A DNA stretch of 64,000 nt, from contig CAZEWH010000001.1 of the NCBI GenBank assembly GCA_964515785.1, positions 11,730 through 75,729 of the forward strand, given 5' to 3'. How positions within the stretch are numbered: the stretch's first letter is position 1; every line of letters starts with the position of its first letter. The position numbers and the translations under genes are program-made. The DNA comes from an uncultured Gammaproteobacteria bacterium (GTDB taxonomy: Bacteria > Patescibacteriota > Patescibacteriia > UBA1558 > GWA2-36-10). The notes beneath the pieces were generated by a model that saw only the letters and a list, made by a program, of their open reading frames with translations, made no database searches and was not told where the DNA came from. Positions 3,108-58,339 of this stretch are shown here, one piece after another.

Positions 3108-3136
3108 TTGACAAAATAGTTTATATATGCTATACT
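3108..3136 (+). promoter_or_regulatory. sigma70-type promoter TTGACA-N17-TATACT driving GC-rich two-gene cassette
   Basis: TTGACA at 3108-3113, 17-nt spacer, TATACT at 3131-3136, about 70 nt upstream of SD TAGGAGG. Confidence 0.6.
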
Positions 3137-3216
3137 TTTTCATTGTTTGAAAGTTCGTTGACTTCGAAATAAACTAAATCCACTAAATCTGTCACTCATG
3201 CTTTAGGAGGAACGTC

Positions 3217-3762
3217 GTGACCCGAAAAAAGAAATTGGGAGGGATTTTGGTTGCCATTGCTTTGGCGGCTATCTTGCTTCCCGGAGGATTTTTCCTCTGG
3301 CAAACTTGGTTTGTCTTTGATGGTGATGACATGGCTTGGGATGTTGGCCTGCTAGCTGATTCGCCTAATGACTTTGTTAGGATGGATAATCTGCTGCAGA
3401 ATTCAGTGTCTGCCATGGAAGAGCGTGATCTGACTACCGGTCCAGTCAGTCCTTACCTAGCCCATTTTGGTAGCATGGACGAATGCTATCAGACAGTGGT
3501 TGATCTGCAGGCTGAAGTCCATACTTGGGCTGAAGCTTATCCGGATTCTGCTGCAGCCAACAGCGAAGAAGTCCTGGCTCGTCAGGATGAAGTCGCAGCT
3601 CTGCGTACTCGTTTCAACAAGTTGCCTGATAGCCCGATCTACAATTACTACTTTTACAATCGCTATGCCTGGATGGGAGTGGTCATGCTAGGAGCTATGT
3701 ATTTCTTGATCCTGGGACTGATCTGGTACAACCGTCCGGAGGAGGCGAGTCATGTTTGTTAA
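3217..3762 (+). CDS. hypothetical membrane protein (N- and C-terminal TM helices), GC-rich, GTG start with strong SD
   Basis: 181 aa; SD TAGGAGG 6 nt upstream of GTG 3217; local GC about 50% vs about 34% background. Confidence 0.55.
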   Translation: MTRKKKLGGILVAIALAAILLPGGFFLWQTWFVFDGDDMAWDVGLLADSPNDFVRMDNLLQNSVSAMEERDLTTGPVSPYLAHFGSMDECYQTVVDLQAEVHTWAEAYPDSAAANSEEVLARQDEVAALRTRFNKLPDSPIYNYYFYNRYAWMGVVMLGAMYFLILGLIWYNRPEEASHVC

Positions 3763-4702
3763 GAACCCGACTGTCAAACGATCTGGCTGGCCTTATCGTT
3801 TCTGGAAGTGGACCTATCAGAATCGTTTCTGGAACAAGGACTTGCCCGAGCGTTTCTCGCTCTGTGCCTTTACCCAGCGCAGCATCTGGTTGGGATTTTT
3901 CCTACTGCCGCTGCTGTATGCCATCTACTTCTTGGTGGCTTGGTTTATTTACGACGTGCTTTATCGTCGGGTGGTCAGTCATATCACCAAGTACGCACCG
4001 CTGGCTGCTCTGCTGATTTGGCTGCCTCTGGTAGCTCTCAGTTTCTGGGGAGGTATGTCTGAAACAGCAATTGTCTTGGTCATTCTGACAGGCATTCTTT
4101 TGGGTATCCTAGTGGCGGCCGTTGTGATCATGGTGGCATGTTACTTACTGTGGGAGTTGATTAAAAAGGTCTTTACCTTCAACACTCAAGTGCATAGCTA
4201 CCACTATGTGCCTAGTAGTGAGTATCGTCGGCCGCTGGATCGCTACGACTTCAACCACGACACTGATCAAGGACTTGTCCATACCTTGTTCTGGATGCAG
4301 CCTCTCATCTGGCTCGGCATCTTTGCTCTGCTGGGAGGTTTTGGCGGAGGACACTATATCTCTAACCAGACCTTTGATCCGGTGTTGGCCAAGAAGTTCA
4401 TGCTTGGCTATGGCATTTTCTTCGTTGCTTACTACATCGGTGCCACCTTTTTCCTTTGGCGACACTGGAAGAAGGAAGTCAGGATCGAGCGGGGAGAAAT
4501 CGAGCGTCATCCGGAAAAACCGTCCAAGCCCAAGAAAGTGCGCAAGCACAAGGGCTGGTTTGGCCGCTGGTGGCTGGGTACTGTTTGGCCTGGCCGGTTT
4601 GGTAACCTCTTCCGTAACATCGGCGAGTTCCTCTGTCTGCTATGGGATGGCCTCAAGGCCCTCAAGCATCAGGTCTGCCCGATCATGGAAGTAGTGGAAT
4701 AG
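3752..4702 (+). CDS. hypothetical polytopic membrane protein with basic C-terminal tail, GC-rich, overlaps upstream gene by 11 nt, SD GAGGAGG
   Basis: 316 aa; several hydrophobic helices; RBS GAGGAGGCGAGTCATG inside the upstream ORF end. Confidence 0.55.
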   Translation: MFVKNPTVKRSGWPYRFWKWTYQNRFWNKDLPERFSLCAFTQRSIWLGFFLLPLLYAIYFLVAWFIYDVLYRRVVSHITKYAPLAALLIWLPLVALSFWGGMSETAIVLVILTGILLGILVAAVVIMVACYLLWELIKKVFTFNTQVHSYHYVPSSEYRRPLDRYDFNHDTDQGLVHTLFWMQPLIWLGIFALLGGFGGGHYISNQTFDPVLAKKFMLGYGIFFVAYYIGATFFLWRHWKKEVRIERGEIERHPEKPSKPKKVRKHKGWFGRWWLGTVWPGRFGNLFRNIGEFLCLLWDGLKALKHQVCPIMEVVE

Positions 4703-4710
4703 TATTTCAA

Positions 4711-4742
4711 CTGGCGTGTACACTATGCACGCCAGTTTTTTA
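4711..4742 (+). terminator. intrinsic terminator (CTGGCGTG..CACGCCAG + TTTTTT)
   Basis: 8-bp GC stem, 9-nt loop, T6. Confidence 0.75.
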
Positions 4743-4759
4743 TTTATCCACAGATTTGT

Positions 4760-4788
4760 TTGACAATATTTTTATTAGCTGTTAATAT
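4760..4788 (+). promoter_or_regulatory. consensus promoter TTGACA-N17-TAATAT of an orphan small transcription unit
   Basis: TTGACA 4760-4765, 17-nt spacer, TAATAT 4783-4788; no protein gene downstream before terminator. Confidence 0.5.
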
Positions 4789-4795
4789 ATACATA

Positions 4796-4936
4796 TCATC
4801 GTTCTTCAAAGATGTAAGCAATTCACCGCCAGAGACGTCTCTCTATCACCCGGATCTTGGTCTAGACAGACTCTCAATCAATGCTTACAACTTTTACCCA
4901 CAGGACTCTACTTCGGTAGAGTCCTTTCTTTTATTT
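4796..4936 (+). ncRNA. candidate ~135-nt small RNA ending in terminator hairpin GGACTCTACTTCGGTAGAGTCC + T-run
   Basis: promoter at 4760-4788; internal palindromes GAGACGTCTC and GTCTAGAC; terminator hairpin 4903-4924 is near-identical to the one ending cassette U3 at 18063-18084 (minus strand); no SD-preceded ORF. Confidence 0.35.
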
Positions 4937-5016
4937 AACCCCCTAAATCCCCCTTGTCAGGGGGACTTTTTTGTTTAAATAATTCCTCCCCTGACAAGGG
5001 GAGGTTAGGAGGGGTT
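4937..5016. repeat. 80-bp GC-rich palindromic intergenic element, copy 1 (AACCCCCTAAATCCCCCTTGTCAGGGGGAC ... TCCTCCCCTGACAAGGGGAGGTTAGGAGGGGTT)
   Basis: two internal hairpins (C5-TTGTCA-G5 and CCTCCCC-TGACAA-GGGGAGG) whose loops are reverse complements; outer arms AACCCCC/GGGGTT; second copy at 10999-11092. Confidence 0.8.
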
Positions 5017-5029
5017 AATCCTTACCATA

Positions 5030-5047
5030 AAGTAATTATAATTACTT
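5030..5047. promoter_or_regulatory. perfect 18-bp palindrome AAGTAATTATAATTACTT upstream of MerR-like gene (candidate operator)
   Basis: exact dyad 36 nt upstream of the 5083 start, overlapping the likely promoter region. Confidence 0.4.
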
Positions 5048-5082
5048 TACACTTTTTACTTTATGGTTTATAATATATATAC

Positions 5083-5322
5083 ATGCCAAAACAGGGGACA
5101 GACACAAAATTGATAAAGATTGGTCAGCTAGCCAAGCTGTTTTCTGTTTTACCTTCTACGATCAATTTTTATACTAGAGAAGGTTTACTTCCTGAAGATA
5201 ATCGCTCTCAAGGCGGTTATCGTCTTTATGATAAAAATAAAGCTATCAAAATATTAAATAAAATAAATTATTTACAAAATAAGAAAAGATTAACTATAGA
5301 AGAGATTAAAAACTTGCTATAG
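5083..5322 (+). CDS. small MerR-family HTH transcriptional regulator
   Basis: 79 aa; N-terminal MerR-type HTH (IGQLAKLFSVLPSTINFYTREGLL..GYRLYD). Confidence 0.6.
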   Translation: MPKQGTDTKLIKIGQLAKLFSVLPSTINFYTREGLLPEDNRSQGGYRLYDKNKAIKILNKINYLQNKKRLTIEEIKNLL

Positions 5323-9144: not shown

Positions 9145-10999
9145 AGTAGTAAAAAGAAATTTAGACGCAGCACGTCGAGCTCCAGTACGCAAAAAATCTT
9201 ATGAAGCCCCGGTAGTCCGTCGTCGTAAGCGTGAAGTACCAAAAGAATACCGTACTATGGAAAAAGCTTCCAAAAAAGGCGGTGGTTGTTTATTCTTTTT
9301 ATTTTTAATATTTGTAGTTGCTCTAGCTGGCCTCATCTATTGGAATAAAAACGGAACTACCAATACTGACGAGAGTATCACTGTCCGTGTAGATGGTCCC
9401 AAAAAAATAATTTCTGGTGATCAGGTAGTTTATGAAATAGAATATGAAAATTTAGATATAGTAACTCTAGAAAATATAAAGCTTTCTGTGCGTTGGCCAA
9501 ATGGATTTTATTTTGATGAAGCAAATATAGAACCTAGTGATCAAAATGCTACTACATGGTATCTTGATGATTTGCCAACCAAACAATCCAATTCACTAGA
9601 AATAAAAGGACAATTAGTTGGCCAAAAAGATGATGAGTTATCTGCTATCTTTACTCTAGAATATCAGCCAGTAAACTTTCATTCTGATTTTTCTGTCAAA
9701 GAAATTATAGATACAAAAATATCTGATAGCAAAATAGAGTTGAGTATAGATGCTGTAGACAAGACCTTGGTAGCCACTGAACAGACTATTAATATTAGTT
9801 TTAAAAATTTAACAAATAGAGATTTAGAAGATTTGTATCTAGATATTATTTATCCAGAAGATTTTGTTTTGTTAGATGAACTAAGTTCAAATGAAGAGGA
9901 GGAAGAAGATCTTGAAGATTTTGTAGACGAAGAAGTAGTAGAAGAAGAATCTATCTTTATTCCAGAGGATGATTATTGGAAATTTTCTTTGCCAGCAGCC
10001 ATTGAAGCTAATATGGTTTTGTATGGTGTTTTTCCGGTTGATAGCAAGAGTCAACAATCTTTGATTGTAGAAGTTGGTAATATGATTGATGGTACTTTCC
10101 GTCGTCTGTCACAAGTGACACAAGATATTCAAGTAGTAAATCCAAAATTTGATATAGATTTTTCTATCAATAACGAATACAACAATCCAACAGTCAATTG
10201 GGGTGACATTTTGCGTTATCAATTGGAAGTCACCAACCTAAGTGAGACAGAATTTAATGGTGTTGTTGTTACTGCCTTACTTGATAGTCAAGTATTAGAT
10301 TGGGAAGGTTTGGATACTGTTGGTATAGTACAAGAATCAAATATTATCTGGACCAGTGCTGAAGATGAAGAATTAGATATTTGGCCACCTGGTGATAGCC
10401 GAATTTTTACTTGGCAAATAGATATCATAGATCAGCCAGTCCCAGAACGCATGATTGAAAATATTATCAAAATAAATGTTGATGGCTTGGCAGATTGGGA
10501 ACAAGTGACTACTCCTTTGTTGGTCACTGTTGGTGAAGCAGTTGTCTTTAATAATGGTATTTATTGGGATTTGGGTGGACGACGTGTTGGCTCTGGTTTG
10601 CTGCCACCACAGATGGGAGAGAGTACTCAATATTTAGTGATATGGTCTATACCAGAAGCCACTGGTAATTTTGATTCAGCTACAGTTGTGACTACTTTTC
10701 CACCAGAGGTCAAATTTTTATCAGAAACAGATATACAAGAAGGTGAAATTATTTTTGATGATGATACTAGAAATTTGACTTGGCAGATAGATGATCTGGA
10801 CAATTTACTTTTACCAATGACTGCTTCATTTATTATTGAAGTCATCCCTACTGAAGACAATGTAGGTAGTGCTATGGTCTTGATGAATCCTACTACTTTG
10901 ACAGCTGAGGGTATAGAGCAAGTTATTATTAGATCCAAGATGCTCAAAACTTCTGATGTCTATGCTGATAGTAGCGAGCCGATTGGTATAGTTGAATAA
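9137..10999 (+). CDS. hypothetical large membrane-anchored protein (basic N-terminus, TM helix, acidic E-rich stretch, repeat-like beta domains)
   Basis: 620 aa; overlaps recO stop by 8 nt; TM CLFFLFLIFVVALAGLIYW; EEEEEDLEDFVDEEVVEEE. Confidence 0.6.
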   Translation: MAKVVKRNLDAARRAPVRKKSYEAPVVRRRKREVPKEYRTMEKASKKGGGCLFFLFLIFVVALAGLIYWNKNGTTNTDESITVRVDGPKKIISGDQVVYEIEYENLDIVTLENIKLSVRWPNGFYFDEANIEPSDQNATTWYLDDLPTKQSNSLEIKGQLVGQKDDELSAIFTLEYQPVNFHSDFSVKEIIDTKISDSKIELSIDAVDKTLVATEQTINISFKNLTNRDLEDLYLDIIYPEDFVLLDELSSNEEEEEDLEDFVDEEVVEEESIFIPEDDYWKFSLPAAIEANMVLYGVFPVDSKSQQSLIVEVGNMIDGTFRRLSQVTQDIQVVNPKFDIDFSINNEYNNPTVNWGDILRYQLEVTNLSETEFNGVVVTALLDSQVLDWEGLDTVGIVQESNIIWTSAEDEELDIWPPGDSRIFTWQIDIIDQPVPERMIENIIKINVDGLADWEQVTTPLLVTVGEAVVFNNGIYWDLGGRRVGSGLLPPQMGESTQYLVIWSIPEATGNFDSATVVTTFPPEVKFLSETDIQEGEIIFDDDTRNLTWQIDDLDNLLLPMTASFIIEVIPTEDNVGSAMVLMNPTTLTAEGIEQVIIRSKMLKTSDVYADSSEPIGIVE

Positions 11000-11092
11000 A
11001 CCCCCTAAATCCCCCTTGTCAGGGGGACTTGATGGATATAGAATATGTTAGTTAATTAGTTCCTCCCCTGACAAGGGGAGGTCAGGAGGGGT
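10999..11092. repeat. GC-rich palindromic intergenic element, copy 2 (same arms as 4937-5016 with longer central spacer)
   Basis: AACCCCCTAAATCCCCCTTGTCAGGGGGAC ... TCCTCCCCTGACAAGGGGAGGTCAGGAGGGGTT; arms nearly identical to copy 1. Confidence 0.8.
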
Positions 11093-11103
11093 TAAAAAGA
11101 ATA

Positions 11104-12863: not shown

Positions 12864-13553
12864 ATGAAAAGCAAAAAAAAGAAAATTTTAGGATTTTCTA
12901 TAATAGAATTAATGGTTATTATTGGTGCAGTTGGTGTTGTATTGGCTGTGACTGTTTCATATGTCAATCCACTAAAACGTGTCGGAGAATCTAATGATTC
13001 TGTTCGTTGGTCAGATGTTGAAGAAATAGCTCAAGCTCTAGAGCTCTATGCTATAGATAATAGTCAGATACCGGATGATTTTTCTACTCCTATTATAGCG
13101 GTAGACGAAAAACATGTAATCTGTGATTCAGCAGATTCTTTGACTTGTGATGGTGATACCAATGATTGTTTGGTAATAGACGATACAGATTTTTTGGCTT
13201 ATATTGATGACTTGCCAGTTGATCCAGATAAGACAGACACATCTGATACTGGTTATTATGTATTAAGAAAAGAAAATCAGGGTAAGATAGCTATTGGAGC
13301 TTGTGATCCTTATGGATCTACTGCTATTGAAGTTATAGCTCGAGCTGCTTTTTCAGTAGGTTGCGGCAATGGAGTCTTGGAAGAAAGTCTAGGTGAAGTT
13401 TGTGATAGTACTTTTACATCACTATGCAGTGATCCTAGTCAGGAGGGCTGGGGTTTTGGTGACTATGTAAGTAATACTGATTGTAAATCACCTAATGATG
13501 TCTGTAGTCCTGATTGTACTGAGTGTGACGTTGCTTGTATTGGAGGACCATAA
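12864..13553 (+). CDS. type IV pilin-like protein with prepilin N-terminal motif and Cys-rich C-terminal domain (paralogue 1)
   Basis: 229 aa; class-III signal GFSIIELMVII (G/F cleavage site, E at +5); about 14 Cys in C-terminal half. Confidence 0.75.
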   Translation: MKSKKKKILGFSIIELMVIIGAVGVVLAVTVSYVNPLKRVGESNDSVRWSDVEEIAQALELYAIDNSQIPDDFSTPIIAVDEKHVICDSADSLTCDGDTNDCLVIDDTDFLAYIDDLPVDPDKTDTSDTGYYVLRKENQGKIAIGACDPYGSTAIEVIARAAFSVGCGNGVLEESLGEVCDSTFTSLCSDPSQEGWGFGDYVSNTDCKSPNDVCSPDCTECDVACIGGP

Positions 13554-13566
13554 ATTTTGAATAAAT

Positions 13567-14253
13567 ATGTCTAATTTTAAAAATAAGAGATCTGGTTTTT
13601 CTATGATAGAGCTCATGGTCATTATTGTTGGTATTGGTATTTTGTTAGCCATAACTATTTCTTATATCAATCCCTTAAAAAGGATTGGAGAGTCCCGTGA
13701 TGCTCGTCGTTGGACTGATGTAGAATTATTAACTCAAGCTATAGAGCTTTATAGCTTGGACAATGATCAGATTCCTTCTGATTTTTCTGATGCAGTCATA
13801 GCAGTAGATGAAAAGTATGTGATCTGTGATTCAGCAGATTCTTTGATTTGTGATGGTGATACCAATGATTGTTTGGTAATAGATGATGCAGATTTTTTGG
13901 CTTATATTGATACTATGCCAATAGATCCTGGCAAGAGTAGTGTGGCTGATACTGGCTATTATATGACCAGAGAAGAAGATCAAGGTAAGATAGCTATTGG
14001 AGCTTGTGATTCTTATGGTAGTGATCTCATTAAAATTATTTCTAGAGCAGCTTTTTCAGTAGGTTGCGGCAATGGAGTTGTAGAAGAAAGTTTGGGTGAA
14101 GTTTGTGATAGCAATCAAACACAGGTTTGCGATAATCCTGCTGGCTATTATGGAGGTGACTATGTAGAAGATGGTTCAACCTGTAAAATAAATGATGGTT
14201 GGTGCAATAGCACTTGTACAGCTTGTAGCTCTTCTTGTATAGAAGAGGGTTAA
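13567..14253 (+). CDS. type IV pilin-like protein with Cys-rich C-terminal domain (paralogue 2)
   Basis: 228 aa; GFSMIELMVII; about 60% identical to upstream paralogue with divergence concentrated in last 60 residues. Confidence 0.75.
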   Translation: MSNFKNKRSGFSMIELMVIIVGIGILLAITISYINPLKRIGESRDARRWTDVELLTQAIELYSLDNDQIPSDFSDAVIAVDEKYVICDSADSLICDGDTNDCLVIDDADFLAYIDTMPIDPGKSSVADTGYYMTREEDQGKIAIGACDSYGSDLIKIISRAAFSVGCGNGVVEESLGEVCDSNQTQVCDNPAGYYGGDYVEDGSTCKINDGWCNSTCTACSSSCIEEG

Positions 14254-14739: not shown

Positions 14740-17417
14740 TCAAATTCCAACAATGTGATAAGTGTCAAGGCAAGGGCTTGATAGATAATCGTAAATGCGA
14801 AGCCTGTTTTGGATTTAAGAGTTTTTATTTTTCAAATAACAATTTTCTTTTTTGGCAAGACAAGATAAATTATGCTCAGATTTTTATTCGGGAGTTCAAA
14901 CAGACTATCAACATGTTGGTCAATACTTTATTGATCTTGGGTGCTATTTTTACTTTAGTCTTGATTTATATTATTTTAAATAAGGTTCAATTTGATCCTC
15001 GCAACTTATGGGCTTTTATAACTGACGTTCATCGATACAATCTGTGGTTGTTTATTATGATTGTCTTGGATATGTATTTGTATTATCGTTTGACTATTCC
15101 TACTATCAAATCTAAAAACAAATTTAGTATTTTAAAAAATAAAAATTCTTTTGTAAAACATAATATTGCTGACAATTTGAGTCAGGAAGCTAGACGGATT
15201 ATTGATCGAGCTTGGCTTTATGCTCATCACAAAAAAGTCTGGCCAGTCACATCTTGGCATGTTTTGTATGTTTTATTTGATGACAAGGATATTCGTTTAG
15301 TGTTGGCTCGTCTGGGCTTGGGAGCAGACAATCTAAAAAATAAAATAGACCAAGATATAGCTCAATTAGCTAAACAGTCAGAGCCAGGTAAAGGTTTGAC
15401 ACATACTATCAAAGAAGCATTGCTAAATGCTTATTTTCATATGCATGATCGTCAAGCTCAGACTATTGCTGAAGTTGATTTGTTGTTTGGTTTAGCTGTG
15501 TCTAGTCAAGGTGTCAAAAATTTCTTTTATGATTTTGATATTGATGAACAAAAAATCAACAATGTTGTTGCTTGGATTAAAATAAATAATTTATTAAAAC
15601 GACGTTATCAACGTTTTCGTTCCAAATCATTTTTAAAACCAAAAGGTGATGTTAATCGAGCTTATACAGCTATAGCTACTCCGATTTTAGATTCTTTTTC
15701 TCAGGACTTTACCAAGATGGCTAGAGCTGGATATTTACCTCTTTCAGTAGCTCGAGAAAAAGAGATTGACGAAGTTCTCAATACTATTGAAAGTGGTCAA
15801 GATTCTGTAGTGCTGGTCGGTGACCCAGGAGTAGGTAAGGGCAATATTGTCGAAGGTCTAGCCAATCGTATGATGGCTGAAGAAGTACCTTTGTTTTTTC
15901 AAGACAAACGCTTGGTGAGTGTTTCTATACCATTATTGATTTCTGGGGCCACTGGTACAGGTAAATTGGAGGAAAGATTTATAGCTCTACTCAATGAAGT
16001 AGCAGTCTCTGGAAATATTATTTTATTTATCGATGATATCCATAATCTAGCTGGTGTATCTTCTGAGGGGACTGAAGGGGTTGATCTTTCAGAAGTTTTA
16101 GCTGCTGAAGTACGCAAACACAATATTATTGTGATTGGTGCAACCAACAGCAAAGAATTTGTTCAATACATAGAAGGCAAGGCTCTTGGACAGGCCTTAA
16201 AAAAGATAAATATCTTAGAACCAGATAAAAATCAAGCTATTCAAATCATGCAAGCACATGTTGGTCATGTAGAAAATAAACATCATGTTTATTTTACTTA
16301 TGATGCTTTGGAAAAAATTTATGATTTAGCTGGTAGATATATTACTGATCAAGCTTTACCAAAAAAAGCTATCGGACTAATGGATGAAGCTGGTATTATG
16401 GTAGCCAAAGCTGGTCGTCAAGATAAATTAGTTAGAGGTGAGGATATTGCATCTTTAGTTAGTCATAAGACCAACATACCATTGACACAAGTTACAGCTA
16501 AAGAATCGACTAAATTAATGAATTTGGAAGAAGAAATTCATCAGCGTATCATTGGTCAAGATGAAGCAGTCAAGCTAGTATCAGCTGCCCTGCGTCGCGC
16601 TCGAGCTGAGTTGCGAGACCGTAAACGACCAATAGTAAATCTATTATTTTTGGGTCCAACTGGTGTGGGTAAAACAGAACTTGCCAAAACTGTAGCGGAA
16701 AAATATTTTGGTGATGAACAAAATATGATCAGACTGGATATGTCAGAATATCAGACTCAAGCTAGCTTGCCGCGCTTGATTGGTTCACCACAAAATTCTA
16801 CTCCAGGTTTATTGACTGAAGCTGTCCGTCACAAACCATTTGCTTTGCTGTTGCTTGATGAAATAGAAAAAGCTCACCCAGAAATACTTAATATCTTTTT
16901 ACAAATTATGGAAGATGGTCGTTTGACTGATGCTTTGGGTCGGACTGTTGATTTTACCAATTTGATATTGGTAGCTACTTCCAATGCTGGTACATCTTAT
17001 ATTCAAGATCAGATAAATGCTGGCCGGCAGATAGATGACTTTAAAGATGATTTGATAAAAAATCAAATTAGAGATATTTTTGCTCCAGAATTTATCAATC
17101 GTTTTGATGGTACAGTAGTTTTCCGGCCACTTACTCAAGATGAGATTTTTAAGATTGCTGGTCTGATGCTAAATAAAGTTAGAAAGCGTTTAGAAATCAA
17201 AGGCATATTTTTTGAAATTACAGAAGATGCTCAATGGGAGTTGGCTAGAGCTGGTTTTGATCCAGTCTTTGGCGCCAGGCCTTTGCGTAGAGTGATCCAA
17301 GACAATGTAGACAATGCTTTGGCAAATTATTTATTGACTGGCAAGATTGGTCGTCGTGATACAGTAGTCTATGATGAGGGTGGCAAGATCAGTGTCAAAA
17401 AAGCCAAAGGTTACTAA
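14730..17417 (+). CDS. ClpC/ClpB-like double-ring AAA+ chaperone with N-terminal DnaJ-type zinc finger and two TM helices
   Basis: 895 aa; CDKCQGKG and CEACFGFK (CxxCxGxG x2); two hydrophobic helices; two Clp_N repeats; NBD1 Walker A GDPGVGKGN (Thr replaced), Walker B FIDDIH (E to D); NBD2 canonical GPTGVGKT / LLLDEIEKA; no IGF/VGF-type ClpP loop seen. Confidence 0.85.
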   Translation: MEVIKFQQCDKCQGKGLIDNRKCEACFGFKSFYFSNNNFLFWQDKINYAQIFIREFKQTINMLVNTLLILGAIFTLVLIYIILNKVQFDPRNLWAFITDVHRYNLWLFIMIVLDMYLYYRLTIPTIKSKNKFSILKNKNSFVKHNIADNLSQEARRIIDRAWLYAHHKKVWPVTSWHVLYVLFDDKDIRLVLARLGLGADNLKNKIDQDIAQLAKQSEPGKGLTHTIKEALLNAYFHMHDRQAQTIAEVDLLFGLAVSSQGVKNFFYDFDIDEQKINNVVAWIKINNLLKRRYQRFRSKSFLKPKGDVNRAYTAIATPILDSFSQDFTKMARAGYLPLSVAREKEIDEVLNTIESGQDSVVLVGDPGVGKGNIVEGLANRMMAEEVPLFFQDKRLVSVSIPLLISGATGTGKLEERFIALLNEVAVSGNIILFIDDIHNLAGVSSEGTEGVDLSEVLAAEVRKHNIIVIGATNSKEFVQYIEGKALGQALKKINILEPDKNQAIQIMQAHVGHVENKHHVYFTYDALEKIYDLAGRYITDQALPKKAIGLMDEAGIMVAKAGRQDKLVRGEDIASLVSHKTNIPLTQVTAKESTKLMNLEEEIHQRIIGQDEAVKLVSAALRRARAELRDRKRPIVNLLFLGPTGVGKTELAKTVAEKYFGDEQNMIRLDMSEYQTQASLPRLIGSPQNSTPGLLTEAVRHKPFALLLLDEIEKAHPEILNIFLQIMEDGRLTDALGRTVDFTNLILVATSNAGTSYIQDQINAGRQIDDFKDDLIKNQIRDIFAPEFINRFDGTVVFRPLTQDEIFKIAGLMLNKVRKRLEIKGIFFEITEDAQWELARAGFDPVFGARPLRRVIQDNVDNALANYLLTGKIGRRDTVVYDEGGKISVKKAKGY

Positions 17418-17440
17418 ATTATATTTTTATTAAAAAAAGA

Positions 17441-17469
17441 AAAAAGGAACAGAATACTGTTCCTTTTTG
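17441..17469. terminator. bidirectional intrinsic terminator (AGGAACAG-AATA-CTGTTCCT flanked by A-run and T-run)
   Basis: 8-bp stem; A10 upstream, T5 downstream. Confidence 0.75.
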
Positions 17470-17473
17470 ATTT

Positions 17474-17689
17474 TCAAGTATTGACTTGCATAGAAAGCCA
17501 ACGGTCTAGCACGCTGCGCAAAAAGCGCCAATCACCACCGACTTTTTTGGCCGGGATCTTACCTTCTCTGGCTAGACGACAGACTGTCTTTGTGTGCATC
17601 TTGAGATATTCGGCTGCCTCGACAGCGTTAAGGACAGGGGGAGGAGTAGAGGTATGATGGCTTAGGTGCCCCTGATCATTATTGGTCAT
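17474..17689 (-). CDS. excisionase-family helix-turn-helix DNA-binding protein (GC-rich, strong SD)
   Basis: 71 aa; AVEAAEYLKMHTKTVCRLAREGKIPAKKVGGDWRF matches Xis/MerR-superfamily excisionase HTH; SD AAGGAGA 6 nt upstream of ATG; about 50% GC. Confidence 0.7.
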   Translation of the reverse strand: MTNNDQGHLSHHTSTPPPVLNAVEAAEYLKMHTKTVCRLAREGKIPAKKVGGDWRFLRSVLDRWLSMQVNT

Positions 17690-17744
17690 AATTATCTCCT
17701 TGAAAATGATGCATTTTAGTGAAAGAGCTTATTAAAACAATTGT

Positions 17745-17774
17745 ATTAAAGCATTTAATATGTTTTTTTGTCAA
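17745..17774 (-). promoter_or_regulatory. promoter TTGACA-N18-TTTAAT for excisionase-family gene
   Basis: minus-strand TTGACA (plus 17769-17774), TTTAAT (plus 17745-17750). Confidence 0.5.
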
Positions 17775-17794
17775 CCTGCCTGCCGGTAAGCAGG

Positions 17795-17926
17795 AAATAA
17801 AAAGGGCCCCGTCGAGATGATCTCGACGGGGCTTCAGCACCCCTGCTGCACCAGCTTGCTTTACCTTCTTGCGGAGGCGTAAAGGCTGGTATTTTTATTT
17901 TAGCAGTTATTTTGATTTTTTGTCAA
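17795..17926 (-). ncRNA. mini-cassette U1: promoter TTGACA-N18-TAAAAT, ~95-nt GC-rich structured RNA, perfect terminator (GCCCCGTCGAGA-TCA-TCTCGACGGGGC + U-run)
   Basis: minus-strand -35 at plus 17921-17926, -10 at 17897-17902; 5' hairpin ACCAGCCUUUAC..GUAAAGCAAGCUGGU; terminator stem plus 17806-17832, A-run 17795-17803. Confidence 0.4.
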
Positions 17927-18042
17927 AAGAAAAAGGGGACCTCACTAGAGATCCCCCGAGAAACGAAGTAGTCGTCTTCATATTGCCAATCGGAGTTTCC
18001 GATTAGCATATTTATTGTATTATTTATATAAAAAGTAGTCAA
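17927..18042 (-). ncRNA. mini-cassette U2: promoter TTGACT-N17-TACAAT, ~80-nt structured RNA, terminator GGGGAUCUCUAGUGAGGUCCCC + U-run
   Basis: -35 at plus 18037-18042, -10 at 18014-18019; 5' hairpin AAUCGGA-AAC-UCCGAUU; terminator plus 17935-17956. Confidence 0.4.
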
Positions 18043-18055
18043 GAATTTAAGATAA

Positions 18056-18227
18056 AGAAAAAGGGCTCTACCGAAGTAGAGCCCCTGTCGAAAGCGGCCA
18101 TACAGGCCCCTCGTACCTGCGGTCTCGCAGAGTCATCCTGTTACCTCCTGCTGGAGGTGCGCCGTGTCGGTTCGCTGTGTACAGCGAACGCAATATTAAT
18201 TGTATAGATAATTTAGTGTTTTGTCAA
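18056..18227 (-). ncRNA. mini-cassette U3: promoter TTGACA-N17-TACAAT, ~135-nt structured RNA with four perfect hairpins, terminator GGGCUCUACUUCGGUAGAGCCC + U-run; contains SD-preceded 22-codon ORF
   Basis: -35 at plus 18222-18227, -10 at 18199-18204; hairpins GUUCGCUGU/ACAGCGAAC, CCUCC/GGAGG, CUGCG/CGCAG; AGGAGGU-N6-AUG (ATG at 18136, stop 18068) encodes MTLRDRRYEGPVWPLSTGALLR; SD lies inside the CCUCC/GGAGG hairpin. Confidence 0.4.
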
Positions 18228-18250
18228 TTCTGCCTTTGGATGGGACAAGC

Positions 18251-18279
18251 TTGATAAATACCTTGATTTTAGCTATAAT
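18251..18279 (+). promoter_or_regulatory. promoter TTGATA-N17-TATAAT for glyQS
   Basis: TTGATA 18251-18256, TATAAT 18274-18279, about 38 nt upstream of ATG. Confidence 0.6.
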
Positions 18280-18316
18280 TTGTGTGTTAATAAGTATATA
18301 AATTTATTATTTTTTT

Positions 18317-19699
18317 ATGGAAAACGCACGGAAATTTGACAAGGTGGTAAATCTGGCAAAAACAAGAGGTTTTGTCTACCCATCTTCAGATATTTATGGA
18401 GGACTGAATTCTATTTATGATTATGGCCCACTAGGAGTTGAGCTAAAAAACAACATCAAGCAAGCTTGGTGGGATTTTATGTTGGCTCGCAAAGATGTAG
18501 TTGGGCTTGATTCAGCTATTTTGGCGCATCCCAAAATCTGGGAAGCTTCTGGGCATCTAGAGGGTTTTACTGATCCACTAGTAGATTGCAAAAAATGTAA
18601 AGCTAGATTTAGGGCTGATAATCTTCTTGAAAAAAAAGGTATCAAACCTGAATTTGTCCAAGGCAAGCCACAGAATATGAATGATATAAAATGTCCAGAT
18701 TGTGGCGGTGAGTTGACTGACGTTCGTCAGTTCAACCTTATGTTCAAGACTTTTATGGGAGCTTTGGAAGATCAGGCTAGTCAGATCTATATGCGACCTG
18801 AAACTGCTCAAGGTATTTATGTCAATTTTTTGCATGTCAAAGACAGCATGCGCATGAAGATGCCTTTTGGTGTTGCCCAGATTGGTAAAGCTTTTCGTAA
18901 TGAGATCACGCCAGGTAATTTTATTTTCCGTATGCGTGAATTTGAGCAAATGGAAATGCAATATTTTGTCAAAGCAACTGATACTCAAAAAGTTTTTGAT
19001 ACTTGGCAAAAATTACGTATGGACTGGTATTTGTCTTTAGGTATTGATAAAAATAATATTAGATTTCGTGATCATGCCAAAGATGAATTAGCTCATTATG
19101 CTAAACAAGCTATAGATATTGAATATAAGTTTGAATTTACTCCTAATGAAGATTTCAAAGAACTAGAAGGCATCCATGATCGGGGTAATTGGGATCTATC
19201 TCGTCACCAAGAATTTTCCGGACAAAAGATGTCTGTCAAAGACGAAGCAGAGTATATTCCCAATATAATAGAAACTTCAGGTGGAGTTGATCGAGCTATG
19301 TTTGCTTTTTTGATGGATGCTTATGATGAAGTAGATACTCGTAGTGGTGACAAAGATGCCAAGCATAGTACTGAAGTAGTTCTTAGACTTCATCCTAAAT
19401 TGGCGCCTATTAAAATAGCGATCTTGCCATTATCTAAGAAACCTGACTTAGCCAAAAAGACTCAAGGAGTCTATGATATGCTTGTCAATAAATATCGTAT
19501 TCAATATGATGAGACTGGTAGCATTGGTAAACGTTATCGTCGCCAAGATGAGATTGGTACGCCATATTGTATTACTATTGACTTTGATAGTTTGGAAGAT
19601 GATCAAGTGACTATTCGTGATCGCGATACTATGAAGCAAGAGCGAATTGCTATCAAGGATTTAGAAAATTATTTTGTTGATAAATTTTCACCCTGTTAA
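18317..19699 (+). CDS. glyQS: glycyl-tRNA synthetase (dimeric class II GlyRS)
   Basis: 460 aa; class II motifs; zinc-knuckle CKKCKARF..CPDCGGEL; anticodon-binding domain. Confidence 0.95.
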   Translation: MENARKFDKVVNLAKTRGFVYPSSDIYGGLNSIYDYGPLGVELKNNIKQAWWDFMLARKDVVGLDSAILAHPKIWEASGHLEGFTDPLVDCKKCKARFRADNLLEKKGIKPEFVQGKPQNMNDIKCPDCGGELTDVRQFNLMFKTFMGALEDQASQIYMRPETAQGIYVNFLHVKDSMRMKMPFGVAQIGKAFRNEITPGNFIFRMREFEQMEMQYFVKATDTQKVFDTWQKLRMDWYLSLGIDKNNIRFRDHAKDELAHYAKQAIDIEYKFEFTPNEDFKELEGIHDRGNWDLSRHQEFSGQKMSVKDEAEYIPNIIETSGGVDRAMFAFLMDAYDEVDTRSGDKDAKHSTEVVLRLHPKLAPIKIAILPLSKKPDLAKKTQGVYDMLVNKYRIQYDETGSIGKRYRRQDEIGTPYCITIDFDSLEDDQVTIRDRDTMKQERIAIKDLENYFVDKFSPC

Positions 19700-21588: not shown

Positions 21589-23859
21589 ATGATGGAGGAA
21601 AATTTTAAAGAAGAAAGAATAGAAGAAGAGCAATGGACTTGGTCACCAGCCAAGATTTTGGCTTGGATAGCTGTTGTAATTGTGGCTGTTGTGATTGGTG
21701 TGTTGTGGTGGATGAACGCCAATATGATAGTTGATCCAGTATTTGATAATACTAATCAGAATAATGTAGTAGATGTTGTAGATTGTAATGACATCACTGA
21801 TGAAGCAACTTGTTTGGATCGTAGTGATTGTGTAGCTGTAGATACTAATTCTTGTTTTACCAAAATGAGACAGGCTGGAAAATGTAATATAGCTGTAGAC
21901 TATTTATGTACAGAAGATACTAGTTTTGATCGTTGTGAAGATTTGAATTGTGATACTTATGATTTTGATGAAGAAATTACTTGGCAGACTTATAATGATA
22001 GTAGATATAATTTTAGTTTTGATTATCCTGAAACTTGGTATGCTTATGGTTTAAGTGAGTTGGAGGAATATACAGTAATTATATCATCAGATATGTCGAA
22101 TTCAGATGATGATTTATGGGGTATAGAGATTTATGACTTATCAGATATTGATATTGAAGGAATAACTGCTGAAGCTTATATTAATCTTATTATAGATAAT
22201 ACAGGGTCTGAATTTTCGCCATATCGTGATGAGGTAAGAAAAAATGTAGAGTTCAATGGTATTGAGGCCTTGGAGGTTATTGTTACAATGGATGAAGAAG
22301 GTCCAGAAATACTTAGTGGTTGGTACCAGAGAACAATTATTTTTGAACATGAAGACACTATATTTGTGTTTAGTAATAATAATGTTAAAGAGTTTGATGA
22401 TATATTTACAAGTATTTATCAAAGTTTTAAATTTACAGATCAAGAATCAGATTGGCAGACTTATGAAAATACAGATTATGGTTTTAGTTTTGATTATTCT
22501 TCAGATTATATTACGAGGATTCATGAATATGAAGATTATTTTATTGTTGATTTAGCCATAGCTGAAGATAGTATTTGGATGATCAGTATTAAGGTTAAAG
22601 AAAATGTAGATAACCAGAGTCTTGATCAGTTGGTTGAAGAAGGGCGGAGAGCTGGTTTTGAGTTTGAAATTACTGATGTTATTATTAGCGGTCAAGAAGG
22701 AAAAAAATATTCAAGGCCAGATTATGATGGTTATGGCAACACAGCTGCTATTGTAATATTTGAAGATAATATTTTTACAATTGAAGGTAATGATAAGCCT
22801 AGTGACCTAAAAAGTATTTTTGAAAAAACTTTGTCTAGTTTCCAATTTACAGATCAAGAATCAGATTGGCAGACTTATGAAAATATTTGGGATCCAAATC
22901 ATTCCGGTCCTGGTGGCCAATTAGATATTGCTTTTCAATTTGATTATCCAAATAATTGGCAAGTTACTGGTGATGGTTCTGGAAGATATTTGAGACCTGT
23001 TGATGGTTCTAACAGTATTTTTGCAGATATTTATCCAAAATCTAAAGAGTCTTATGATGGTTATAAATATCATAATCCAGATAGCTTTATCAGTGATTAT
23101 ATAGTACATGAAGCTATGTATTCATGCGAAGCAGATGGGCATGGGGGTAGTGTACATTGTGAAGAAGCCTTGATTGTTGAACAGGGAGTGTCTGATCATG
23201 GTATTACTTATCATAAATTAGGTATGACAGAAGTCTCGATTCGTGTTGAAAATGATTGGCAAGAGGAAAAAAGATATAGAGGACCTGTTTATGCTTTGGA
23301 AGTAAGTGAATTTACTAATGGTGAATATGAAATAATTTTTCTTTCCCCAAGGGGAGAGGGTATAGGTGATGAAGGATTGAATGATATTTTTATAGGTATA
23401 GTAAATAGTTTCCAATTCACAGATCAAGAAGAAGACATAGGAGATACACAAACTTACATAAATCAAGAATATAGTATTAGTTTAAATTATCCAATGTCTT
23501 TTTATATGCAAGAAGAAAGCTCAGAAGAAGTGTTGTTTGATTCAGACGAAGGACATTTTTGGTTTAGAATAGCTGACAATGAAGACAATCTTGATGCTCA
23601 AGGCATAATGGATTTTTATTATGCTAATGATGGTTATGGTTATCAATATGAAGATAGTTTTGTGACAATAGCTGACATCAATAGCTATAAGCAAGGTCGT
23701 TATGATCTTGGTATTATAGAAAATTATTTCATTCCATCAGGAGATCAAGTTTTTAATCTTTCTTTTGAATTTAATTTTGATGAAAATAATACAGAATTAT
23801 TTGATGAATATTCACAAATAATTTCAGATATTATAAATAGTTTTGTTTTTATTTATTAA
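21589..23859 (+). CDS. large membrane-anchored repeat protein (four copies of FQFTDQESDWQTYEN..GFSFDY module)
   Basis: 756 aa; N-terminal TM helix; Cys-rich segment then four ~150-aa repeats. Confidence 0.6.
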   Translation: MMEENFKEERIEEEQWTWSPAKILAWIAVVIVAVVIGVLWWMNANMIVDPVFDNTNQNNVVDVVDCNDITDEATCLDRSDCVAVDTNSCFTKMRQAGKCNIAVDYLCTEDTSFDRCEDLNCDTYDFDEEITWQTYNDSRYNFSFDYPETWYAYGLSELEEYTVIISSDMSNSDDDLWGIEIYDLSDIDIEGITAEAYINLIIDNTGSEFSPYRDEVRKNVEFNGIEALEVIVTMDEEGPEILSGWYQRTIIFEHEDTIFVFSNNNVKEFDDIFTSIYQSFKFTDQESDWQTYENTDYGFSFDYSSDYITRIHEYEDYFIVDLAIAEDSIWMISIKVKENVDNQSLDQLVEEGRRAGFEFEITDVIISGQEGKKYSRPDYDGYGNTAAIVIFEDNIFTIEGNDKPSDLKSIFEKTLSSFQFTDQESDWQTYENIWDPNHSGPGGQLDIAFQFDYPNNWQVTGDGSGRYLRPVDGSNSIFADIYPKSKESYDGYKYHNPDSFISDYIVHEAMYSCEADGHGGSVHCEEALIVEQGVSDHGITYHKLGMTEVSIRVENDWQEEKRYRGPVYALEVSEFTNGEYEIIFLSPRGEGIGDEGLNDIFIGIVNSFQFTDQEEDIGDTQTYINQEYSISLNYPMSFYMQEESSEEVLFDSDEGHFWFRIADNEDNLDAQGIMDFYYANDGYGYQYEDSFVTIADINSYKQGRYDLGIIENYFIPSGDQVFNLSFEFNFDENNTELFDEYSQIISDIINSFVFIY

Positions 23860-54654: not shown

Positions 54655-54936
54655 TTAGGCTGGAGGTTCGACGCGTCGGGCAGATTTGAGTATTAGACCC
54701 GTACCATCGCTTTCGCCACTCAAACAGCGTCCACAAGCTTCGATAGCTCGTATCTCTTTGAGCGTGCGAGCTTGTTTGATCTTGGGCGGCATTTTATCCA
54801 TCATAAGACGTTCGCATTGTGGGCAGTAAAAACCAAGACCGACGACAATTTCTTCGAGTTCAGCCACTGTAGTGGCTGTTTTAGCCTCGGTTTCGGTACG
54901 ACCTTCTCTGAGACGATTCCATCCGATTGTAGCCAT
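54655..54936 (-). CDS. small zinc-ribbon protein (CPQC..CGRC), GC-rich, strong SD
   Basis: about 93 aa from ATG 54936; SD AAGGAG + 6 nt; four Cys in two CxxC pairs; GC about 50%. Confidence 0.5.
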   Translation of the reverse strand: MATIGWNRLREGRTETEAKTATTVAELEEIVVGLGFYCPQCERLMMDKMPPKIKQARTLKEIRAIEACGRCLSGESDGTGLILKSARRVEPPA

Positions 54937-54972
54937 TTCTCTCTCCTTTTTTAGTGAACCATGATTCAAGGT

Positions 54973-55037
54973 AATATATATTATATTTATTATTTTGTCA
55001 ATCATGATTTGACAACTTAAAAAACTTGCTTTATACT
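54973..55037. promoter_or_regulatory. divergent promoter pair whose -35 boxes form the palindrome TTGTCAA-TCATGAT-TTGACAA (candidate operator)
   Basis: minus-strand TTGACA(plus 54996-55001)-N17-TATATT(54973-54978); plus-strand TTGACA(55009-55014)-N17-TATACT(55032-55037). Confidence 0.55.
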
Positions 55038-55270
55038 AATAAACAATAATTTAAATATGAAAAGTTTTAACTTTCAACTAAATACTAAGAAACACAGCGC
55101 TAAACATTATCGCTGGTATTTTGGTGTCTTAGTTGATGGTTAATATATAATATTTATTAGAATTATTATAATTTAATATAAATTTTTTAGATAATTAGCT
55201 ATCAACTAAAGTTGGTGGCTTTTTTTGTTGTATAAAAAAGTTCTTTCCCAACACCAAAAGGAGGTGAAAC

Positions 55271-55564
55271 ATGTCTATCATCAAGACCCCAATGTCTCGT
55301 GCTTTGCAAGAAGCTTGGCAAGAGCGTTTGTCTCAGAATCCTACTCGAGCTGAGCTGATTGATGTCATTCAGCAGATTGCTGTCTGGCGTGAAGAAGCAG
55401 CGACTGAGCTTTTTAAAGCTGAGTTGTCTCTGACTGATAAAGAGTTGGAGATTATCGTTGAGCATGTGCCTGAGTTTCGTCAGCGGGCAGCTCGCTTGCT
55501 TGCTCGAGTCAATGACTGGGCTGAGCTACAGGCTTCCAAGTGCCACGGTGGCTTTGTCATCTGA
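55271..55564 (+). CDS. hypothetical helical protein, GC-rich, SD AAAGGAGGTGA
   Basis: 97 aa; about 225-nt AT-rich leader from divergent promoter. Confidence 0.5.
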   Translation: MSIIKTPMSRALQEAWQERLSQNPTRAELIDVIQQIAVWREEAATELFKAELSLTDKELEIIVEHVPEFRQRAARLLARVNDWAELQASKCHGGFVI

Positions 55565-55578
55565 AAAGGAGGTGAATA

Positions 55579-55773
55579 ATGTCAGATATGCCAGAGCATG
55601 ATGACAGCTTTGTCCGCGAAGATACACTTGGTTGGACAGGTAATCATCATGATGAAATCGGCCTCAAAGACAGTGGCCAGTATCAAGCAATTACTGGCCA
55701 AGAAGATCACAGTTTCAGTGATGTTTCTTGGTCTGGTGATAGTGTGACTGGAGATGCTATCTTTCCTGGCTGA
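55579..55773 (+). CDS. hypothetical acidic small protein, GC-rich, SD AAAGGAGGTGA
   Basis: 64 aa; D/E/H-rich, low complexity. Confidence 0.4.
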   Translation: MSDMPEHDDSFVREDTLGWTGNHHDEIGLKDSGQYQAITGQEDHSFSDVSWSGDSVTGDAIFPG

Positions 55774-57370: not shown

Positions 57371-57374
57371 GCTA

Positions 57375-57538
57375 TTGACAGTATTTGAGGGAATTGCTAT
57401 GCTATAAGCAGTTCTTTCATGCAGTCGTCATTCCAAACCATCTACTGGGTTTTTTGCTCCTGACCTGACCGCCTCCTTGACCGCGTTTGATTGCCATGAC
57501 GAGCCTCCGACCCTCGTAGCTTTGCTACGGGGGTTTTT
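57375..57538 (+). ncRNA. orphan cassette A: promoter TTGACA-N17-TATGCT, ~120-nt GC-rich structured RNA, terminator CCCTCGTAG-CTTTG-CTACGGGGG + T5
   Basis: located between convergent pepA and pth; contains CCUCCUU (anti-SD-like) and GTCGTCATTCC..GCCATGACGAGC inverted repeat; no credible ORF. Confidence 0.4.
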
Positions 57539-57554
57539 CTTATTTATCAAAGAC

Positions 57555-57700
57555 TTGACAGGATATTTGATTTGGTATAATATATATCCACGATCTTTCG
57601 ATGCCAGAAGAGCGATCTAACAAATGTCGGGAGCCCATTCCCACTCTCGTGTGCTGCGCTTTTCCGACGAGCCCTTGTTGCCTTGCAACAAGGGTTTTTT
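57555..57700 (+). ncRNA. orphan cassette B: promoter TTGACA-N17-TAATAT, ~105-nt GC-rich structured RNA, terminator CCCTTGTTGC-CTT-GCAACAAGGG + T6
   Basis: shares CGACGAGCC + terminator architecture with cassette A. Confidence 0.4.
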
Positions 57701-57755
57701 CTTTGTATACTAAAAATGTCCAGAGTGCGAAAAGCACCGGGGACACAACCTGAAT

Positions 57756-57784
57756 AACCCTTTCAGCAATTTGTTGAAAGGGTT
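57756..57784 (-). terminator. hairpin AACCCTTTCAGCAA-TT-TTGTTGAAAGGGTT abutting pth stop
   Basis: near-perfect 14-bp dyad. Confidence 0.5.
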
Positions 57785-58339
57785 TTAATTATATTTATTA
57801 GAAGTGACTGTAAATCCTTTTTTGATAATAGATTCTAAAATCAAATGACTAGTGTCGATAATTTCAGCTAGTTTTTTCTTTTGTTCAGAATCAAATTTTT
57901 TAAGCACAAAACCTTCTGCATTACCTTTTTGAGTGCCAATACCAAGTCTAATACGGATAAAATCTTTTGATTTTAGATGTTTGATAGTTGATTCAACACC
58001 TTTATGACCACCAGCTGATTTTTTTCGGCTGATACGTATTTTGCCAAAAGGCAAATCTATATCATCATAAATAATAATTATTTTTGTGGTGGGTATTTTA
58101 TAAAAAGATTTTAGTTTTTTGACAGCTCTACCAGATTCATTCATATAAGTCAGTGGCTTGGCAATAATATTTTTTTCTCTATCAATCTTGAAGTCAGCCA
58201 AGGCACTATTACTGGCTTTATGTGATTTCCAGTTCAAGCTTTTTTTGTTAGCTAAAGAATCCAAAACCATCCAACCAAAGTTGTGGCGGGTCTTAGCATA
58301 TTTTTTGTCTGGATTTCCTAGTCCAATGATCAAACGCAT
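57785..58339 (-). CDS. pth: peptidyl-tRNA hydrolase
   Basis: 184 aa; MRLIIGLGNPDKKYAKTRHNFGW N-terminus with catalytic His. Confidence 0.92.
   Translation of the reverse strand: MRLIIGLGNPDKKYAKTRHNFGWMVLDSLANKKSLNWKSHKASNSALADFKIDREKNIIAKPLTYMNESGRAVKKLKSFYKIPTTKIIIIYDDIDLPFGKIRISRKKSAGGHKGVESTIKHLKSKDFIRIRLGIGTQKGNAEGFVLKKFDSEQKKKLAEIIDTSHLILESIIKKGFTVTSNKYN

Follow-up and report, generated by a model that had tools for sequence, protein, structure and literature searches.

The 414-bp gap between the convergent genes pepA and pth appears to hold several small non-coding RNA genes that were inserted recently as a cluster. We assign a probability of about 60% to the reading that two units in this gap, A and B, are independently transcribed non-coding RNA genes; as far as their sequences tell, they look like new, lineage-specific but ordinary regulatory small RNAs, in two and possibly three units. 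On the proposed reading, RNA A (~130 nt) and RNA B (~113 nt) would each have their own sigma-70-type promoter and their own intrinsic terminator, and both would be transcribed in the same direction as pepA and insulated from pth. The window analyzed here is a 64-kb stretch of DNA, and all coordinates refer to it.

Within the window, pepA (plus strand; families PF00883/PF02789) ends at 57370 and pth (minus strand; family PF01195) ends at 57785, leaving a gap at 57371-57784; the gap is flanked by pepA, pth, der, and a gene of the LytR family. Homologues of the window's Pth, GlyRS, and PepA carry the labels Candidatus Komeilibacteria or Parcubacteria, and an identical pth was found on a 328-kb marine metagenome scaffold. 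The closest GTDB homologues of Pth (L007, CAYMZA010000003.1; L008; L022) share the gene order; the titles of these MAGs, "uncultured Gammaproteobacteria," look like mislabels against a Parcubacteria-like Pth. The window is AT rich (~34% GC), whereas the gap block has a GC content of 45% and units A and B reach 0.52 and 0.49, respectively, in agreement with an earlier note on this DNA, which had described the putative transcripts as GC rich.

Three small GC-rich genes lie upstream of pepA, encoding proteins of 116 (54655-55005, minus strand), 97 (55271-55564, plus strand), and 64 amino acids (55579-55773, plus strand), none with a family match. The 116-amino-acid protein has two CxxC pairs and its gene is divergent from the other two, homologues of which precede pepA even in a relative as distant as L007. 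The interval between the divergent genes (55009-55270) has a perfect promoter (TTGACA, 17 nt, TATACT) followed by an AT-rich leader of ~190 nt. Within this leader are a 28-codon ORF (55057-55143) and, immediately ahead of the strong Shine-Dalgarno (SD) sequence of the 97-amino-acid gene, a hairpin resembling a terminator (55197-55220, then TTTTTTTG). This arrangement is kept in L087 (6165-6376), and the leader may be an attenuator.

A consensus scan recovered both plus-strand promoter/terminator cassettes that the earlier note had placed in the pepA-pth gap; both begin with a TTGACA-N17 promoter and end with a strong hairpin followed by a T-run. Perfect sites of the form TTGACA-N16-18-TAnnnT are in four-fold excess across the window (11 observed versus 2.7 ± 1.7 in shuffles), and 8 of the 11 are intergenic, although non-coding DNA makes up 11% of the window; five of these eight drive orphan units, that is, promoter-to-terminator units without an ORF. 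Terminator-like sites are likewise numerous in the 2-kb region around the gap (6 versus 1.7 ± 1.3 expected). The features of units A and B are as follows.

57375-57403, plus strand: promoter A (TTGACA at 57375-57380, 17-nt spacer, TATGCT at 57398-57403; TG just before the -10).
57406-57417, plus strand: conserved 5'-terminal segment of RNA A (AAGCAGUUCUUU; 85% mean pairwise identity in four variants).
57418-57508, plus strand: body of RNA A (C rich, G poor, aligning poorly between variants).
57509-57541, plus strand: terminator A (hairpin at 57509-57535 with 12 pairs, 2 of them G.U, then TTTTTCTT).
57555-57583, plus strand: promoter B (TTGACA at 57555-57560, 17-nt spacer, TAATAT at 57578-57583).
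57589-57625, plus strand: variable 5' segment of RNA B (AUCCAC, GAUCUUUC; 6 of 44 columns invariant).
57626-57668, plus strand: conserved 43-nt core of RNA B (GUCGGG...GCCCAUUCC...GUGCUGCGC.UUUCCGAC).
57669-57703, plus strand: terminator B (hairpin at 57669-57697 with 13 pairs, then TTTTTTCTT).

The earlier note had also reported a motif common to both units just before their terminators. Such a motif exists, but it is an 8-mer (GACGAGCC, at 57498 and 57666) rather than a 9-mer and is not kept in relatives; the motif CGACGAGCC common to A and B is a coincidence of this strain.

Comparison with relatives was used to ask which parts of the block are constrained. Six contigs with an identical Pth have a gap that is 100% identical and hence uninformative, but four further variants of the block were found in relatives whose Pth is 86-90% identical.

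L087/L088/L093: gap of 478 bp.
L089/L090/L091: gap of 449 bp.
L092: gap of 450 bp.
L096/L097: gap of 264 bp, unit A absent.

Because unit A is absent from the L096 variant, it is dispensable. Comparisons of unit A rest on four variants and those of unit B on five, all closely related, so that the statistics are thin. As a baseline for neutral change, third codon positions of pth differ by 22-39% between the block-bearing lineages (61-78% identical), and 41-45% of them are invariant. Against this baseline, neither hexamer of promoter B changes in any of the five variants, whose spacers measure 16-17 nt (P ~ 2 × 10−5, given 41% invariance at pth third codon positions); a TGgTATAAT at 57573-57581 overlaps its -10. 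For promoter A, the -35 is invariant and the -10 in relatives is TATACT, giving 11 of 12 invariant hexamer positions across four variants (P ~ 1 × 10−3). Compensatory changes occur in all three terminators of the gap (A, B, and C2; the last is described below). In terminator A they affect two pairs and none is broken in the stem core; in terminator B they affect three pairs, and 96.9% of cells are paired. Taken together, this pattern points to selection on the promoters and terminators of A and B, which makes independent small non-coding transcripts the preferred reading. Each unit combines a promoter conserved beyond the neutral rate, a terminator closing a predicted transcript of 50-300 nt, and no conserved reading frame, as expected of an sRNA gene.

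These comparisons bear on the possibility that the gap is simply a terminator or insulator block that prevents collision between pepA and pth transcription, its promoter-like sequences being incidental in an AT-rich spacer. Several observations fit such a block: pepA and pth overlap without any terminator in relatives, the 235-bp gap of one relative (L108) consists of two terminators with no consensus promoter, a minus-strand T-run (hairpin C1) and a plus-strand T-run (hairpin C2) occur in all variants, and terminator A also serves the pepA mRNA in this strain. However, three successive plus-strand terminators exceed what insulation needs, the hexamers of A and B show little or no change against a divergence of 22-39% at neighboring synonymous sites, and the 43-nt core of unit B is conserved even though it lies in no terminator. 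We therefore regard the insulator explanation as unlikely. The hairpins are also not simple bidirectional terminators, an outcome against which the earlier note had staked its claim: relatives with 86-90% identical Pth keep the promoter hexamers together with the B core, terminators A and B have no minus-strand T-run, and only the C1/C2 pair fits the bidirectional pattern.

Reading unit A as an RNA gene, its transcript is predicted to start near 57408-57411, judged by the distance to the -10, and terminator A lies 132 nt past the -10; the RNA would be ~130 nt long. RNA A has 33-37% C and 15-21% G across the four variants. It contains the CCUCCUU pointed out in the earlier note (57472-57478 in this strain) and a CCUCC directly before the terminator (57504-57508); all four variants have a CCUCC 5-10 nt upstream of terminator A. 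Conservation is uneven: the promoter, the first 12 transcribed nucleotides, and the terminator are 82-85% identical, whereas the body has 39% pairwise identity and many indels. Conserved islands of RNA A are its 5' end (CAGUUCYUU), GACCGC, and CCAUGA. The body of A evolves fast, and much of it may be unconstrained.

A tract of this kind could also be a Rho-loading (rut-like), C-rich, G-poor segment, or part of the pepA 3' untranslated region (3'UTR), with no separate RNA. In all variants, C exceeds G in an unstructured stretch of ~90 nt directly downstream of pepA, as this explanation would have it. Moreover, pepA has no terminator of its own upstream of unit A in this strain, so that terminator A also ends the pepA mRNA. 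Nevertheless, a conserved consensus promoter separates the tract from the stop codon of pepA, and the strong intrinsic terminator that follows makes Rho unnecessary, leaving the rut/3'UTR explanation very unlikely in our view.

Unit B is organized differently. Terminator B lies 114 nt past the -10, and the RNA would be ~113 nt long. Its 5' part includes a block of 11-12 nt that is found in this strain and in L092 (11 nt there) and is absent from the other three variants. The 43-nt core, whose consensus across variants starts with GUCGGR, lies outside any terminator and is conserved, yet it contains 1-nt indels. A 6-pair helix (GUCGGG/UUCCGAC) closes the core; it is paired in all five variants and never varies. 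In the proposed mechanism, the core before the terminator might offer a seed or a protein-binding site.

The indels speak to coding potential. ORFs of 40-68 codons are present on both strands of the gap, and the Cys-rich frame that the earlier note had listed in unit B exists (57601-57753), but at 50 codons rather than 49. A small protein encoded in this frame or in the short frames of A would account for these ORFs. None of them has a Shine-Dalgarno sequence, though, and the frames run through the terminators, both as the earlier note had described. In the most conserved part of B, 1-nt indels shift all frames; the short ORF that spans the core has lost its ATG in L089 and L096 and is in another frame in L087 and L092. 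On these grounds the core of RNA B is taken to be non-coding. Indels between variants of unit A are not multiples of three, and a six-frame peptide comparison of the variants gave matches in all six frames with switching between them, which is uninformative about any one frame and is the mark of nucleotide-level conservation. We consider encoded small proteins extremely improbable. A leaderless small protein was also considered and rejected, as the predicted starts have no ATG.

The region was assigned to no known RNA family; such an assignment would have refuted the claim of the earlier note. No Rfam 15 family reached its gathering score anywhere in the 64-kb window. An E-value scan of the gap gave best scores of 15-22 bits against thresholds of 49-100 (E ~1; noise driven by the terminators), scans of 17400-18320 and 4700-5100 likewise gave nothing above threshold, and ARAGORN found no tRNA or tmRNA in the window. 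Among known classes, SRP RNA, 6S RNA, and RNase P RNA were rejected for wrong size and shape and the lack of a model match, a riboswitch or leader because no gene follows on the plus strand, and a DGR template repeat or a CRISPR/TIGR array because there are no repeats.

Folding qualified the claim that these are structured RNAs. The terminator hairpins bear it out, and the full units have folding z scores of -3.0 and -4.3, but this signal comes from the terminators: without them, the bodies are no better than shuffles (z = -0.34 for A and -0.93 for B), and there is no covariation outside the terminators. RNAalifold found no conserved structure outside the terminator among the unit A variants; in unit B, the core helix is invariant and two small helices are weak, so that covariation is confined to the terminator. 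A covariance model of B picked up A by way of the terminator alone and gave no further match in the window or across 20 loci. A more fitting description of RNA A is C rich, G poor, and largely unstructured.

A third, weaker plus-strand element in the gap had been missed in the earlier note. It comprises TTGCAA-N17-TATACT and two hairpins (57718-57744 and 57756-57784).

57683-57711, plus strand: possible promoter C (TTGCAA, 17 nt, TATACT; 9 of 12 consensus positions), its -35 inside terminator B.
57718-57744, strand-neutral: hairpin C1, a fold with a T-run after the hairpin when read on the minus strand.
57756-57790, plus strand: hairpin C2 and T-run, a plus-strand terminator (13-pair hairpin at 57756-57784).

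The sequence of C1 differs in all five variants, and each forms a hairpin preceded by a plus-strand A-run; C1, with a folding z score of -2.88, is probably the pth terminator, or alternatively a 5' hairpin within a small RNA C. In C2, compensatory changes occur in 9 of 12 pairs across the five variants, and its T-run shares bases with the stop codon of pth (57785-57787). Two readings are equally likely: a third RNA of 65-75 nt, or facing terminators, C1 for pth and C2 for the plus strand. The small-RNA reading of C is kept open because a TATAAT stands at a fixed distance in three of four relatives: L087, L089, and L096 have TATAAT as the -10, whereas L092 has TAATAT, the spacer being 17 nt.

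More distant relatives indicate how the block arose. The pepA and pth genes overlap in L007 (Pth 66% identical) and in L099/L100 (71%), and they are separated by 33 bp in L098 (70%) and by 45 bp in L101/L102 (68%). In L108 (PepA 68% identical), the 235-bp gap holds its two terminators and no B homologue. Because relatives at 60-71% Pth identity have an overlap, a short gap, or terminators only, the block is, by this comparison, a recent lineage-specific insertion.

Similar units occur elsewhere in the window. Of its 17 strong terminators, six close orphan units, each of which runs from promoter to terminator and has no ORF. Beyond A and B, these candidate units are as follows.

18061-18227, minus strand: TTGACA, 17 nt, TACAAT; body of ~140 nt with four hairpins and a UUCG-loop terminator.
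17934-18042, minus strand: TTGACT, 17 nt, TACAAT; terminator at 17934-17957.
17806-17926, minus strand: TTGACA, 18 nt, TAAAAT; terminator at 17806-17832; the body holds CGCCUCCGC.
4760-~4925/4935, plus strand: TTGACA, 17 nt, TAATAT; body of ~125 nt (z = -3.0).

The three minus-strand units form the 17xxx array, which sits between the Clp ATPase and GlyRS genes. The likeness in architecture that the earlier note had drawn between the gap and this array (17806-18227) was borne out and extends to the plus-strand unit at 4760-~4925. The relative L103, whose GlyRS is 93% identical, has the array with one extra unit. There, the first unit (18061-18227; body z = -2.52) is 86% identical, the place of the second is taken by a different unit, and the third has an 80% identical body and a different terminator. 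In L104 (GlyRS 76% identical), a 279-bp AT-rich gap stands in place of the array. The number of predicted units in the array is thus different between close relatives. The L103 contig ends inside the array (1-1127), which has at least five minus-strand terminators and the extra unit beyond a helix-turn-helix gene. In the window, this gene (17480-17692, minus strand; GC rich) encodes a 71-amino-acid HTH_17 protein (excisionase/AlpA-like) within the array; it has 77% DNA identity in L103 and is absent from L104, and a search of its protein against viral sequences gave one weak match.

Whether these units form a genome-wide class, as the earlier note had suggested, can be answered in part. The architecture is common to them, but no sequence is beyond the terminator hairpins, and the units are confined to a narrow lineage. 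An intra-window similarity search found no second copy of any unit, the only shared segments being hairpins: those of A and B, and the UUCG-loop terminator of the 4760 unit (4906-4927), which is nearly identical to 18061-18086. Orphan-type units number 11 in 23 kb of ingroup loci (chosen around such sites) versus 0 in 32 kb of outgroup, and the units are absent from relatives at ~60-78% protein identity.

Other features of the window were recorded along the way. The unit at 4760 lies after two ORFs of 181 and 316 amino acids (3108-4702; ~50% GC) behind a perfect TTGACA-17-TATACT promoter; neither ORF has a Pfam or PADLOC match, and one weak PHROG match was obtained (membrane protein, E = 3 × 10−4). 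Searches of the GC-rich ORFs against PHROGs and PADLOC gave no informative match except the excisionase-like HTH_17. A GC-rich palindromic element of ~90-100 nt occurs twice (4930-5018 and 10992-11095; 85-92% identical) with arms ACCCCCTAAATCCCCCTTGTCAGGGGG and CCCCTGACAAGGGGAGGTTAGGAGGGG; both copies are intergenic and have a REP- or MITE-like look. Adjacent paralogues of 229 and 228 amino acids (12864-14253; 76-78% DNA identity) represent a tandem duplication, and a 756-amino-acid ORF (21589-23859) has internal repeats ~414-570 nt apart, each with the motif FQFTDQESDWQTYEN.

The turnover of units raises the question of whether the block is a relic of a phage or mobile element, foreign DNA in decay whose moron-like GC-rich cassettes came from a donor and play no role here. 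The block separates genes that adjoin each other in relatives, its base composition stands out (45% versus 34% GC), close relatives have gained, lost, and exchanged units (L096 has no unit A, and L103 has a different 17xxx array), and the array contains an excisionase-like HTH_17 gene. On the other hand, searches for a source came back empty: a blastn search of phage and plasmid collections with the gap as query returned nothing but a 28-nt chance match, the block had no match in IMG/VR, and scanning for the pattern of the B core gave no match in viral contigs and, in metagenome contigs, one known variant plus two chance matches. The block borders show no integrase, repeats, or target duplication. 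In addition, the GC-rich sequence is maintained in an AT-biased genome while synonymous sites differ by up to 39%, and conservation is selective, falling on the B core and the promoter hexamers. We judge inert foreign DNA to be quite unlikely.

If units A and B are indeed small RNA genes, the sequence of RNA A offers a lead to its function. C-rich sRNAs of low-GC Gram-positive bacteria pair with SD sequences and repress translation; RsaE/RoxS and the UCCC-motif Rsa RNAs of Staphylococcus aureus are trans-acting C-rich sRNAs. The CCUCC(UU) of RNA A is complementary to the organism's SD sequence (AAGGAGGUG), and RNA A might pair with ribosome-binding sites of mRNAs and so repress their translation, by analogy with these C-rich sRNAs. 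Such pairing is reasonable to suppose because genes here use strong SDs (e.g., AAAGGAGGTGAAACATG and AAGGAGGTG). The SD-complementary CCUCC is present in all four variants and may be accessible. Duplex prediction for A against 87 start regions gave SD regions as the best partners (e.g., -27 kcal/mol for ORF 3752) but recovered strong SDs only and is thus non-specific, and the complement of the conserved 5' end of RNA A had no meaningful match in the window. We hold action by SD pairing to be a tentative possibility, and on balance a doubtful one.

RNA A resembles the RsaE/RoxS-like RNAs in being a stand-alone intergenic gene on the scale of 100 nt in an AT-rich genome, with its own sigma-70 promoter and terminator and with C-rich motifs, predicted to be unpaired, that are complementary to G-rich SDs. 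It differs in having no sequence or covariance-model match (the comparison was made through Rfam and description only) and in its host, a Parcubacteria-like CPR bacterium rather than a Firmicute; moreover, a hairpin-loop position is a feature of the known motifs that those of RNA A may not share. A second comparison is with DapZ and MicL, type I 3'UTR-associated sRNAs with an internal promoter. Like them, unit A lies directly downstream of a stop codon, that of pepA, has its own promoter, and has a terminator in common with the upstream mRNA; unlike theirs, its promoter lies past the stop codon and not within the coding sequence. Because the whole block is absent from relatives, it would not have evolved from an existing 3'UTR.

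A third parallel, in organization, is with phage morons, autonomous promoter-gene-terminator cassettes between adjacent genes that include prophage-borne sRNA genes. The gap cassette likewise lies precisely between genes that abut in relatives, with its own promoter, a factor-independent terminator, and an atypical composition. It differs from morons in having no ORF and in standing between core housekeeping genes, with no recognizable prophage and no phage match. A more speculative reading, to which we give little credence, is that the units are fast-turnover, self-contained sRNA cassettes, mobile or modular and each made up of a consensus promoter, a GC-rich non-coding body, and a strong terminator, that this lineage evolved or acquired and that insert at gene junctions and are swapped between close relatives, possibly in connection with an episymbiotic lifestyle. 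As part of the same reading, they would sometimes occur in arrays beside an excisionase-like HTH gene, as a non-coding analogue of phage morons.

Patescibacteria (CPR) have tiny genomes with few recognizable regulators, and our literature search found no paper on small RNAs in this group. The units are predictions and, even if real, would be a familiar kind of gene. They are conserved within one lineage and absent from sister lineages, and the CCUCC of RNA A yields a direct, testable hypothesis of repression via Shine-Dalgarno pairing. If the predictions are true, at least six orphan units in 64 kb would imply that even reduced genomes make use of riboregulation and that it evolves fast in them.
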